The notes under the pieces: model-generated
Databases searched by the model: none
What the model saw: only the letters and a program-made list of their open reading frames with translations
Told to the model about the DNA's origin: nothing
From: Escherichia coli
Lineage (GTDB): Bacteria; Pseudomonadota; Gammaproteobacteria; Enterobacterales; Enterobacteriaceae
Direction: 5' to 3' (one strand)
DNA: 64,000 nucleotides
Assembly (NCBI RefSeq): GCF_048403405.1
Contig: NZ_CP183129.1
In this document: piece after piece, positions 13,880 to 18,842 of the stretch
Layout of the letters: each line of letters starts with the position of its first letter
How positions within the stretch are numbered: the first letter of the stretch is position 1
Position numbers and translations under genes: made by a program

Positions 13880-15241
<1,362 letters not shown>

Positions 15242-15380
15242 AACGTGAGGAAATACCTGGATTTTTCCTGGTTATTTTGCCGCAGGTCAGCGTATCGTGA
15301 ACATCTTTTCCAGTGTTCAGTATGGTGCCTTGCACGGTAATTATGTCACTGGTTATTAACCAATTTTTCCTGGGGGATAA

Positions 15381-16520
15381 ATGAGCGCGGGAAGCCCAAA
15401 ATTCACCGTTCGCCGCATTGCGGCTTTGTCACTGGTTTCGCTATGGCTGGCAGGCTGTTCTGACACTTCAAATCCACCGGCACCGGTCAGCTCCGTTAAT
15501 GGCAATGCGCCTGCAAATACCAATTCTGGTATGTTGATTACGCCGCCGCCGAAAATGGGAACGACGTCTACAGCGCAGCAACCGCAAATTCAGCCGGTAC
15601 AGCAGCCACAAATTCAGGCTACTCAACAACCGCAAATCCAGCCAGTACAGCCAGTAGCTCAGCAGCCGGTACAGATGGAAAACGGACGCATCGTCTACAA
15701 CCGTCAGTATGGGAACATTCCGAAAGGCAGTTATAGCGGCAGTACCTATACCGTGAAAAAAGGCGACACACTTTTCTATATCGCCTGGATTACTGGCAAC
15801 GATTTCCGTGACCTTGCTCAGCGCAACAATATTCAGGCACCATACGCGCTGAACGTCGGTCAGACCTTACAGGTGGGTAATGCTTCCGGTACGCCAATCA
15901 CTGGCGGAAATGCCATTACCCAGGCCGACGCAGCAGAGCAAGGAGTTGTGATCAAGCCTGCACAAAATTCCACCGTTGCTGTTGCGTCGCAACCGACAAT
16001 TACGTATTCTGAGTCTTCGGGTGAACAGAGTGCTAACAAAATGTTGCCGAACAACAAGCCAACTGCGACCACGGTCACAGCGCCTGTAACGGTACCAACA
16101 GCAAGCACAACCGAGCCGACTGTCAGCAGTACATCAACCAGTACGCCTATCTCCACCTGGCGCTGGCCGACTGAGGGCAAAGTGATCGAAACCTTTGGCG
16201 CTTCTGAGGGGGGCAACAAGGGGATTGATATCGCAGGCAGCAAAGGACAGGCAATTATCGCGACCGCAGATGGCCGCGTTGTTTATGCCGGTAACGCGCT
16301 GCGCGGCTACGGTAATCTGATTATCATCAAACATAATGATGATTACCTGAGTGCCTACGCCCATAACGACACAATGCTGGTCCGGGAACAACAAGAAGTG
16401 AAGGCGGGGCAAAAAATAGCAACCATGGGTAGCACCGGAACCAGTTCAACACGCTTGCATTTTGAAATTCGTTACAAGGGGAAATCCGTAAACCCGCTGC
16501 GTTATTTGCCGCAGCGATAA
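15381..16520 (+). CDS. nlpD: Murein hydrolase activator lipoprotein NlpD (LysM + M23 peptidase-like)
   Basis: 379 aa ORF with lipobox LAGCS, proline/glutamine-rich repeats and a LysM segment; directly upstream of rpoS. Confidence 0.9.
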
Positions 16521-16582
16521 ATCGGCGGAACCAGGCTTTTGCTTGAATGTTCCGTCAAGGGATCACGGGTAGGAGCCACCTT

Positions 16583-17575
16583 ATGAGTCAGAATACGCTG
16601 AAAGTTCATGATTTAAATGAAGATGCGGAATTTGATGAGAACGGAGTTGAGGTTTTTGACGAAAAGGCCTTAGTAGAAGAGGAACCCAGTGATAACGATT
16701 TGGCCGAAGAGGAACTGTTATCGCAGGGAGCCACACAGCGTGTGCTGGACGCGACTCAGCTTTACCTTGGTGAGATTGGTTATTCACCACTGTTAACGGC
16801 CGAAGAAGAAGTTTATTTTGCGCGTCGCGCACTGCGTGGAGATGTTGCCTCCCGCCGCCGGATGATCGAGAGTAACTTGCGTCTGGTGGTAAAAATTGCC
16901 CGCCGTTATGGCAATCGTGGTCTGGCGTTGCTGGACCTGATCGAAGAGGGCAACCTGGGGCTGATCCGCGCGGTAGAGAAGTTTGACCCGGAACGTGGTT
17001 TCCGCTTCTCAACATACGCAACCTGGTGGATTCGCCAGACGATCGAACGGGCGATTATGAACCAAACCCGTACTATTCGTTTGCCTATTCACATCGTAAA
17101 GGAGCTGAACGTTTACCTGCGAACCGCACGCGAGTTGTCCCATAAACTGGACCACGAACCAAGTGCGGAAGAGATCGCAGAGCAACTGGATAAGCCAGTT
17201 GATGACGTCAGCCGTATGCTTCGTCTTAACGAGCGCATTACCTCGGTAGACACCCCGCTGGGTGGTGATTCCGAAAAAGCGTTGCTGGACATCCTGGCCG
17301 ATGAAAAAGAGAACGGTCCGGAAGATACCACGCAAGATGACGATATGAAGCAGAGCATCGTCAAATGGCTGTTCGAGCTGAACGCCAAACAGCGTGAAGT
17401 ACTGGCACGTCGATTCGGTTTGCTGGGGTACGAAGCGGCAACATTGGAAGATGTAGGTCGTGAAATTGGCCTCACCCGTGAACGTGTTCGCCAGATTCAG
17501 GTTGAAGGCCTGCGCCGTTTGCGCGAAATCCTGCAAACGCAGGGGCTGAATATCGAAGCGCTGTTCCGCGAGTAA
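16583..17575 (+). CDS. rpoS: RNA polymerase sigma factor RpoS (sigma-38)
   Basis: Track ORF 16547..17575 trimmed to ATG 16583 ([21 protein letters not shown]); 330 aa. Confidence 0.95.
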
Positions 17576-17694: not shown

Positions 17695-18102
17695 CTATGT
17701 GTTCATCATCTTGCGCACTAGCTGCATAAACAGCTCCTGCTCTTCTCCACTCAAACGCCCCAAAAATTCCTCATCCACGCTGTCACCTATCGGTATCGCC
17801 GCAGCAAGTATCTTTTCGCCTTCGGCAGTCAGCCAGACAAAGCGTCGCCGCTTGTCAGCGGCGTCATGTTCACGTCTGACTAAGCCACGATTTTCCATTC
17901 TTGCCAACATTTCTGCCAGCGTTGCTTTGGTGCTGACGGCTGCTTCCATCAGTGCCACCTGTTCGATACCAGGTTTATCAGCAATGGCGCGCATCACCGC
18001 GTACTGTGGTTTGGTCAGATCAGGTAACTCGTGCTGCCAGCGGGCCGTGTGTTGCTGAAAAAGCTGTCGTAACTGATGGAACGCTTTATTTCGTAACGCC
18101 AT
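17695..18102 (-). CDS. MarR/SlyA-family transcriptional regulator
   Basis: 135 aa ORF with winged-helix MarR-like sequence; divergent from the ubiX-like gene. Confidence 0.75.
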   Translation of the reverse strand: MALRNKAFHQLRQLFQQHTARWQHELPDLTKPQYAVMRAIADKPGIEQVALMEAAVSTKATLAEMLARMENRGLVRREHDAADKRRRFVWLTAEGEKILAAAIPIGDSVDEEFLGRLSGEEQELFMQLVRKMMNT

Positions 18103-18248
18103 GTAAACTCCGGGCTAATTCTCTGTCGCTATCATAGCGGTTTTTCAGTGACGAAGAAGATGTTGTTACTTTTCAATCCTTGCCGCTGTGGAAATGAAGG
18201 AGTATGTTAATAATAACGTTCGTATACGAACAATTAAGAGAGTAAGCA

Positions 18249-18842
18249 ATGAAACTGATCGTCGGGATGACAGGGGCTACCGGTGCGCCTCTTGGTGTGG
18301 CATTACTGCAAGCGCTGCGGGAGATGCCGAATGTCGAGACTCATCTGGTGATGTCGAAGTGGGCGAAAACCACTATTGAACTGGAAACGCCTTACAGCGC
18401 TCGCGATGTTGCCGCCCTCGCAGACTTCAGCCATAACCCGGCGGATCAGGCGGCGACTATCTCTTCCGGCTCCTTTCGTACCGACGGCATGATCGTTATT
18501 CCATGCAGTATGAAAACGCTCGCCGGTATCCGCGCTGGTTACGCCGATGGCCTGGTGGGGCGCGCGGCGGACGTCGTGCTCAAAGAAGGCCGCAAACTGG
18601 TGCTGGTGCCGCGTGAAATGCCGCTTAGCACAATCCATCTCGAAAATATGCTCGCACTTTCGCGCATGGGCGTGGCGATGGTGCCGCCGATGCCTGCCTT
18701 TTATAACCATCCCGAAACGGTAGATGACATTGTCCACCACGTGGTAGCCCGCGTGCTGGATCAATTTGGCCTCGAACATCCTCACGCCAGGCGCTGGCAA
18801 GGATTGCCGCAGGCCCGGAATTTTTCTCAGGAGAATGAATAA
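18249..18842 (+). CDS. ecdB: UbiX-like flavin prenyltransferase (decarboxylase partner)
   Basis: 197 aa ORF starting MKLIVGMTGATGAPLG (flavoprotein fold); stop overlaps the next start. Symbol is from memory of O157:H7 annotation. Confidence 0.8.
   Translation: MKLIVGMTGATGAPLGVALLQALREMPNVETHLVMSKWAKTTIELETPYSARDVAALADFSHNPADQAATISSGSFRTDGMIVIPCSMKTLAGIRAGYADGLVGRAADVVLKEGRKLVLVPREMPLSTIHLENMLALSRMGVAMVPPMPAFYNHPETVDDIVHHVVARVLDQFGLEHPHARRWQGLPQARNFSQENE

Follow-up and report, generated by a model that had tools for sequence, protein, structure and literature searches.

In-frame length alleles of a tandem repeat in the N-terminal tether of the Escherichia coli lipoprotein NlpD

The nlpD gene of Escherichia coli contains a short array of imperfect tandem repeats, which raises the question of whether the number of repeat units differs between strains and, if so, how such differences arise and what they do to the protein. 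According to the original prediction for this locus, units of about 21-24 bp encode a low-complexity linker of QQPQIQPV-like repeats that could vary in copy number by slippage. We analysed the array in a window of 64,000 nucleotides of E. coli DNA (contig NZ_CP183129.1), to which all coordinates below refer, and compared it to complete E. coli genomes, other assemblies and protein database entries. A repeat in this lipoprotein has already been known since 1994, as judged from the title of the report by Ichikawa, Li, Fu and Clarke (J Bacteriol 1994;176:1630, PMC205248; cited in PMC1084345), which announces unusual repeats in the amino acid sequence of a lipoprotein and concerns the same gene at the same chromosomal locus, beside pcm, as the one studied here.

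The identity of the gene is borne out by its position, its sequence and its domains. The open reading frame at 15381-16520 encodes 379 amino acids on the plus strand, as do all features of the gene described below, and the gene order in the window is surE, pcm, nlpD and rpoS, with pcm located upstream and rpoS downstream of nlpD. RefSeq genes labelled "nlpD: murein hydrolase activator NlpD" are 100% identical to the window over 300 nt, and the nlpD annotation was matched in 5,420 RefSeq E. coli genomes, with a best match of 100% identity. The product is an outer-membrane lipoprotein (PMC5533458) annotated as a murein hydrolase activator. Its lipobox, L23-A24-G25-C26 (15447-15458), was recognized by eye in the translation (SLWLAGC followed by SDTS) rather than with a signal-peptide predictor, and puts the lipid anchor on Cys26, at the start of the mature protein. 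Both expected domains scored above their Pfam curated cut-offs, with a peptidoglycan-binding LysM domain at residues 123-165 (15747-15875; PF01476, E = 2.7e-12, 46.8 bits against a cut-off of 20.9) followed by the C-terminal, amidase-activating LytM/M23 domain at residues 279-372 (16215-16496; PF01551, Peptidase_M23, E = 4.6e-33, 113.7 bits against 28.7). The start codon in the RefSeq/PGAP annotation is codon 16 of this frame (MSLVSLW, at 15426), which gives a protein of 364 amino acids and a gene of 1095 bp, as compared to 379 amino acids from the upstream ATG at 15381. Annotated NlpD lengths are thus shifted by 15 residues between the two start choices, which matters when lengths are compared across databases.

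The Pfam domain limits leave an N-terminal tether of residues 27-122 (15459-15746) between the lipid anchor and LysM, and the repeat is located inside it. In a previous study, NlpD was described as a lipoprotein of the outer membrane that has an N-terminal linker, a LysM domain, a second linker and a LytM domain named dLytM, with both linkers predicted to be disordered (Tsang et al., 2017, PMC5533458). The same study found LysM to be necessary and sufficient for septal localization, and an mCherry fusion with the N-terminal linker alone to give weak enrichment at midcell. The placement of the array between Cys26 and LysM agrees with the suggestion that it encodes part of a low-complexity linker, which is predicted to be disordered. 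Solved structures of relatives (EnvC, DipM and LytM domains) match residues 235-379 of NlpD only.

The repeat covers codons 66-98 (15576-15674), and thus extends slightly beyond the segment first pointed out, 15581-15670, which corresponds to codons 67-97. It consists of three 24-bp units and a partial fourth unit with a nested 9-bp doublet, and the peptide from Q66 to Q98 reads QQPQIQPV, QQPQIQAT, QQPQIQPV and QPVAQQPVQ. Tandem Repeats Finder reported a period of 24, 2.7 copies and 70% matches at 15579-15643, and a direct-repeat search recovered three copies at a spacing of 24 nt with identities of 100, 71 and 89%. Both programs recovered unit 1 (codons 66-73, 15576-15599) and unit 3 (codons 82-89, 15624-15647), both QQPQIQPV, while unit 2 (QQPQIQAT, codons 74-81, 15600-15623) is the most divergent, with 8 nt differences to unit 1 and 9 nt differences to unit 3. 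The degenerate fourth unit, QPVAQQPVQ, spans codons 90-98 (15648-15674), as seen in the sequence and in the direct-repeat search. Only two differences, both synonymous, were counted between units 1 and 3 (in a register shifted three bases downstream, QPQIQPVQ), which shows that the peptide rather than the DNA has been kept. An imperfect tandem repeat of QQPQIQPV-like units within nlpD was thereby confirmed, with a period of 24 bp, or eight amino acids, at the upper end of the predicted range; a period of 21 bp was not supported.

Within the array, three pairs of identical blocks were identified. The longest is a 12-nt direct repeat, CAGCCGGTACAG, with a left copy at 15591-15602 and a right copy at 15663-15674, 72 nt further downstream. 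An 11-nt direct repeat, CAACCGCAAAT, is present at 15579-15589 and, 48 nt downstream, at 15627-15637. Finally, Tandem Repeats Finder identified a perfect 9-bp tandem doublet, two copies of CAGCCAGTA encoding QPV-QPV, at 15639-15656.

A search with matched controls was needed for the survey of length alleles. Whole-region BLAST identity and coverage had suggested a repeat that is essentially invariant (2 of 5,420 genomes), a reading that was overturned by a junction search. Calibration with synthetic variants showed that only changes of +/-24 bp are visible in the whole-region search, since deletions of 48 or 72 bp and larger insertions are split into two pieces that are re-joined and thus hidden. 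The short allele of strain Z142-6 was equally uninformative as a query, as normal genomes also cover 100% of it in two joined pieces. We therefore used concatenated junction sequences of 39-42 nt with no more than 27 nt in common with normal alleles, such that the 28-nt word of megablast cannot seed on normal genomes. In a local validation, all eight loci that carry one of the tested junctions were matched, and the negative controls that lack them were not (three full-length alleles of E. coli type, RM9387 and a divergent locus with seven units).

With this search, length variants were identified in 71 of 5,426 complete E. coli genomes, every match lying inside nlpD and every variant being in frame. 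Most of them carry a deletion of 48 bp (59 genomes, in three junction haplotypes of 2, 15 and 42 genomes), while deletions of 9 bp were found in seven genomes, insertions of 9 bp in three, and deletions of 72 bp in two, Z142-6 and USDA-ARS-USMARC-49610. Duplication junctions of 72 bp and 48 bp gave no matches among the 5,426 genomes. The modal allele is thus common to about 98.7% of the complete genomes, and the remaining 1.3% is a lower bound, since the counts cover pre-specified junction classes only and other insertions could be missed; six of the 5,426 genomes gave no nlpD match at all. No change of a single unit (+/-24 bp) was seen, and the 300-nt nlpD search returned no records in the 90-95% identity band. 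In a second whole-region search the same band held 89 records, consisting of the ten alleles of +/-9 bp and others, of which the only one checked by sequence, E400634, differs by SNPs and is unchanged in length. Of 120 records sampled evenly, all kept the matched length except RM9387, with 3 bp added outside the array, and Z142-6, which lacks 72 bp.

The alleles were verified by sequence as the interval bounded by the anchors CCGCCGAAAATGGG on one side and ATGGAAAAYGG on the other. This interval is 115 nt in the modal allele, as found in the window, ATCC 43894 and E400634, and 67 nt in EC4115, PK8566, AMSHJX01, ECCWS199 and P276M. It measures 106 nt in the alleles with one 9-bp unit less (OkiPb01683, 2014C-3061), 124 nt in the allele with one more (13P460A), and 43 nt in the two genomes that lack 72 bp (Z142-6, USMARC-49610). 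Gene lengths annotated in RefSeq agree with these values (1047, 1086, 1104 and 1023 bp, as compared to the modal 1095 bp). The repeat number is thus not identical in all strains, and the suggestion that copy number varies between strains holds for these alleles as well as for those in other assemblies, which include a 72-bp insertion (L005), a 57-bp deletion (L007), the 48-bp deletion in Shigella and a form with seven units (L004). In the protein database, we identified variants with 24 additional residues (P0003), 16 fewer residues (P0008) and seven units (P0004). A single 90% protein cluster contained the form that is 16 residues shorter in Shigella dysenteriae, S. flexneri, S. boydii and E. 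coli, along with E. coli forms that are 19 and 3 residues shorter.

One of the control genomes differs in a wider region. In E. coli RM9387 (L001, NZ_CP009104), the segment from surE to rpoS shares only about 90% identity with the window, the NlpD protein matches a cluster named after E. fergusonii (P0010), and the three extra bases are located just upstream of the array (STGIQQPQ). This segment could represent a divergent lineage or have been imported.

Every breakpoint of the length alleles falls in a direct repeat of 9-12 nt. The 72-bp deletion joins the two copies of CAGCCGGTACAG, and in Z142-6 it collapses the array in frame to 10 residues; the 72-bp insertion is its exact counterpart, a reciprocal tandem duplication with the 12-mer CAGCCGGTACAG at its borders. 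In the 48-bp deletion, the upstream flank of unit 1 is joined to sequence of the unit 3 type (AAATC) via the 11-mer, and the alleles of -9 and +9 bp have lost or gained one copy of CAGCCAGTA. The 57-bp deletion carries the junctions of the 48-bp and 9-bp deletions together. The form with seven units corresponds to a duplicated 72-bp block of three units plus one further unit, and was found at a locus that is about 90.8% identical to the window at the nucleotide level over 7.2 kb, a value that points to another Escherichia lineage. All alleles are multiples of three bases, with LysM and LytM intact.

Breakpoints in short direct repeats and reciprocal products are what replication misalignment is expected to yield at unstable repeats in E. 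coli. As judged from the breakpoint homology and from the reciprocity of the 72-bp deletion and duplication, the length alleles of nlpD probably arose by slipped misalignment, which lends support to slippage as the source of the changes in copy number. RecA-dependent unequal exchange or recombinational import could give the same length products. Simple slippage might also predict changes of a single 24-bp unit, and the fact that none was seen is likely explained by the divergence of unit 2, which leaves neighbouring units without a long identical block.

The 48-bp deletion was found on at least five flanking haplotypes. One of these is seen in a subset of O157:H7 genomes (L012; H155-H191; EC4115, TW14359, SS17, SS52, JEONG-1266 and others), while full-length nlpD is present on identical flanks in the O157:H7 strains ATCC 43894, SS TX 754-1 and G5295. 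At all 14 variable flank sites, EC4115 is identical to the full-length ATCC 43894, which indicates that the 48 bp were lost within O157:H7, in the group of EC4115, TW14359, SS17, SS52 and JEONG-1266, and the allele may serve as a lineage marker within O157:H7. The recurrence on several haplotypes could in part reflect recombination after fewer events or a single event, and not independent deletions.

Two simpler readings would remove the phenomenon altogether. If the periodicity were a chance product of a short, low-complexity segment rich in glutamine and proline, no true repeat would need to be invoked. We tested this with the best 48-nt self-match at period 24, for which 33 of 48 positions matched in the observed sequence, against codon shuffles. 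Shuffling the codons of the whole gene gave a mean of 24.9 and a maximum of 29, such that none of 300 shuffles reached 33, and neither did any of 1000 shuffles of the N-terminal linker. When only the Q/P segment was shuffled, 18 of 2000 reached this score, and the excess over compositional bias is to that extent modest; unit 2, moreover, is just 71% identical to unit 1. The repeat nevertheless exceeds what composition alone gives, the period of 24 was obtained independently by two repeat finders, and the seven clean units of a related lineage are built on a duplicated 72-bp block. Most directly, the alleles found in nature are exactly 48 or 72 bp apart in length and their breakpoints keep the register, which refutes a chance periodicity and leaves it with next to no probability. 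The other reading is that the alleles are artefacts of sequencing or assembly, in which repeats were collapsed or expanded. Short-read assemblers can indeed collapse repeats, and draft or metagenome assemblies are the source of some variants, such as P0003 on a single TPA contig and P0008 on a 3.3-kb metagenome scaffold. However, the array is only about 100 bp, which is less than one read, and its units have diverged, which makes a collapse unlikely. The 48-bp deletion was recovered in 59 complete genomes from many laboratories, with at least 25 O157:H7 genomes among the matches listed (e.g., EC4115, TW14359, SS17, SS52), and on 24 or more contigs of Shigella dysenteriae. Two independent complete genomes carry the 72-bp deletion, the 57-bp deletion is present on 13 contigs, and all variants are in frame. 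Artefacts are therefore a very improbable source of the alleles.

Structurally, the array qualifies as a coding minisatellite, with head-to-tail copies (2.7 of period 24 and two of the 9-bp unit) and in-frame differences of whole units, with two units lost in the 48-bp deletion, three lost or gained in the 72-bp changes and the nested unit lost or gained in the 9-bp changes. High variability among close isolates, in contrast, was not observed, as the 48-bp deletion is stable across many O157:H7 genomes. A phase-variable contingency locus, switched on and off by frameshifts or promoter spacing, was ruled out, since the unit lengths are 24 and 9 bp and, in all alleles seen, the frame is maintained and the C-terminal domains are complete. 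The nlpD repeat is accordingly a slow coding minisatellite in a tether predicted to be disordered and not a contingency locus. It shares head-to-tail units in multiples of three and in-frame strain differences with the coding VNTRs used in MLVA typing of enteric bacteria, but it is far less variable, with one allele in about 98.7% of genomes and alleles that are stable within lineages. No MLVA scheme that uses the nlpD repeat was found in the literature searched.

A search of the literature for nlpD VNTRs or polymorphisms found no allelic series for E. coli, only a 12-bp in-frame deletion in Salmonella Typhimurium UK-1, which its authors placed outside the rpoS promoter (Luo et al., PLoS One 2012, PMC3391293). 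The deleted sequence, CGCCGCAACAAG as reverse complement, decodes to TPQQ, which places the deletion in the homologous Q/P-rich tether, and two Salmonella protein clusters (P0037 and P0038) differ by the same four residues, QQ(TPQQ)APQ. Like the E. coli alleles, the UK-1 deletion is an in-frame, strain-specific indel in nlpD; it differs in belonging to another species, in its 12-bp unit and in being reported from a single strain, and Salmonella lacks the clean array of three 24-bp units.

Outside Escherichia, the clean 8-mer array is replaced by a degenerate Q/P/V tract. The distance from the lipid-anchored cysteine to LysM, however, is 88-98 amino acids in 107 of 111 measurable cluster representatives from the Enterobacteriaceae, and the four outliers are deletion and expansion alleles. 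Disordered or proline-rich periplasmic tethers are known from other envelope proteins, such as the linker of LpoB and the proline-rich spacer of TonB, and Lpp acts as a length ruler. The NlpD tether would resemble these as a low-complexity, proline-rich connection between an anchor and a globular domain acting at the peptidoglycan, a resemblance drawn from general knowledge and not from sequence homology, in which length rather than sequence is kept. By this measure, NlpD works like the class of disordered periplasmic tethers, its disorder being the published prediction (PMC5533458).

Differences in the length of such tracts were also observed elsewhere. In one Citrobacter freundii cluster (P0050), the Q/P segment has 20 residues, as compared to 33 in the near-identical tract of P0078 and other Citrobacter, and the Kosakonia cowanii proteins P0072-P0079 differ in the number of QPV triplets, their tethers being 90 and 96 residues long. 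In E. coli, an NlpD protein of 340 amino acids (P0030) has an in-frame deletion of 39 residues in the linker between LysM and LytM (VAVAS joined to TTEPT), which indicates that the second linker, rich in threonine, serine and proline, is also polymorphic in length.

Taken together, we suggest that the repeat forms the Gln/Pro/Val-rich core of a disordered N-terminal tether, which would link the lipid anchor at Cys26 to LysM, which binds peptidoglycan, and to LytM, which activates amidases. The three units of eight residues and the partial one may stem from an old tandem duplication and be kept at the protein level. Identical blocks of 9-12 nt at spacings of 9, 48 and 72 nt would occasionally allow the strands to misalign during replication, whereby the intervening material is deleted or duplicated. 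As the changes are always multiples of three bases, the frame is kept and only the length of the tether is altered, by -24, -19, -16, -3, +3 or +24 residues in the alleles considered here. That the alleles recur yet stay rare, and that the length of the tether varies little between genera, would fit weak stabilizing selection on the reach of the tether and not on its exact sequence, and such selection on exact length must be weak, since the 48-bp deletion is fixed in apparently healthy lineages. We consider this account as a whole highly probable, and conclude from the sequence comparisons that the segment presumably is a flexible tether, the length of which would be under weak stabilizing selection.

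The alleles could also be read as adaptive, or the repeat as acting at the level of the nucleic acid. Under the latter reading, the repeat would be an element that regulates the nlpD-rpoS transcript, or an array to which proteins bind, in favour of which one may cite the joint transcription of nlpD and rpoS from the nlpD promoters and the complexity of rpoS regulation (PMC3391293, PMC5533458). The main rpoS promoter is located inside the nlpD coding sequence (PMC5533458), with TTGCGT at 15982-15987 as the -35 element, a spacer of 17 nt and TATTCT at 16005-16010 as the -10 element, in agreement with published positions (PMC1852560), about 567 nt upstream of the rpoS ATG at 16583. Since the repeat lies about 330 nt upstream of this promoter, it is outside the 567-nt rpoS leader. 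A scan of positions 15000-17000 matched no Rfam family, the synonymous differences between units 1 and 3 argue for conservation of the peptide rather than the DNA, and other genera keep the Q/P/V composition and the length, not the DNA repeat; a function at the nucleic acid level is thus extremely unlikely. Somewhat less remote, although still improbable in our view, is that the length changes represent adaptive tuning of the reach of LytM from the outer membrane to the septal peptidoglycan, in which case the O157:H7 group of EC4115 and TW14359 as well as Shigella would have fixed the loss of 16 residues for an effect on cell separation, the envelope or virulence. The recurrence of the 48-bp deletion on at least five haplotypes and its fixation in whole lineages would fit this reading, as would the conservation of tether length across genera and the description of NlpD as a virulence factor in Yersinia pestis in PMC2736372. 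However, a mutational hotspot predicts recurrence equally well, hitch-hiking can explain fixation in lineages, and the variants total 1.3% of the genomes. The "reach" of the outer-membrane-anchored NlpD to the peptidoglycan was discussed as a possible regulatory principle by Tsang et al. (2017), who also noted that two long linkers make a restriction of reach by anchoring alone unlikely (PMC5533458). Weak stabilizing selection on a flexible tether remains our preferred reading.

The region around rpoS showed further variation. Three chimeric open reading frames (P0045, P0087 and P0092) consist of the first 80-85% or so of NlpD fused to sequence of the UbiD family or of sigma-70 region 4, which suggests that some strains have lost part or all of rpoS by deletion. 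In a Shigella dysenteriae genome (L011, CP026828), rpoS downstream of an nlpD allele with the 48-bp deletion was called as two open reading frames of 29 and 277 amino acids (positions 2155-3092 of that locus), and the gene is probably disrupted, as judged from these calls. In the window, genes for a MarR-family regulator (minus strand) and for UbiX-like and UbiD-like proteins are located downstream of rpoS, at 17695-18842 and beyond. We take K-12 to lack this set of MarR, UbiX-like and UbiD-like genes, such that the window would presumably not be K-12-like at that position. This region 3' of rpoS corresponds to the variable mutS-rpoS region treated in PMC4209514.

The importance of these findings is small, as the repeat was first published in 1994 and NlpD is functionally well studied, and the allelic series in E. 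coli is an unsurprising strain-level polymorphism that specialists will find ordinary. The modest additions are a quantified series, with about 1.3% of genomes in four in-frame classes, breakpoints in 9-12 nt repeats and several haplotypes, and the conservation of tether length across the Enterobacteriaceae despite divergent sequences. The natural alleles with 16 or 24 fewer residues, or 24 more, are ready material for studies of whether the reach of NlpD matters for the activation of amidases. It is more doubtful still than adaptive tuning in general that the recurrent shortening by 16 residues is non-neutral and that tether length sets the reach of the activator to the septal peptidoglycan and AmiC. 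If this were true, these alleles would amount to naturally occurring "ruler" mutants, coupling the distance between the outer membrane and the peptidoglycan to the separation of daughter cells or the robustness of the envelope in pathogens.
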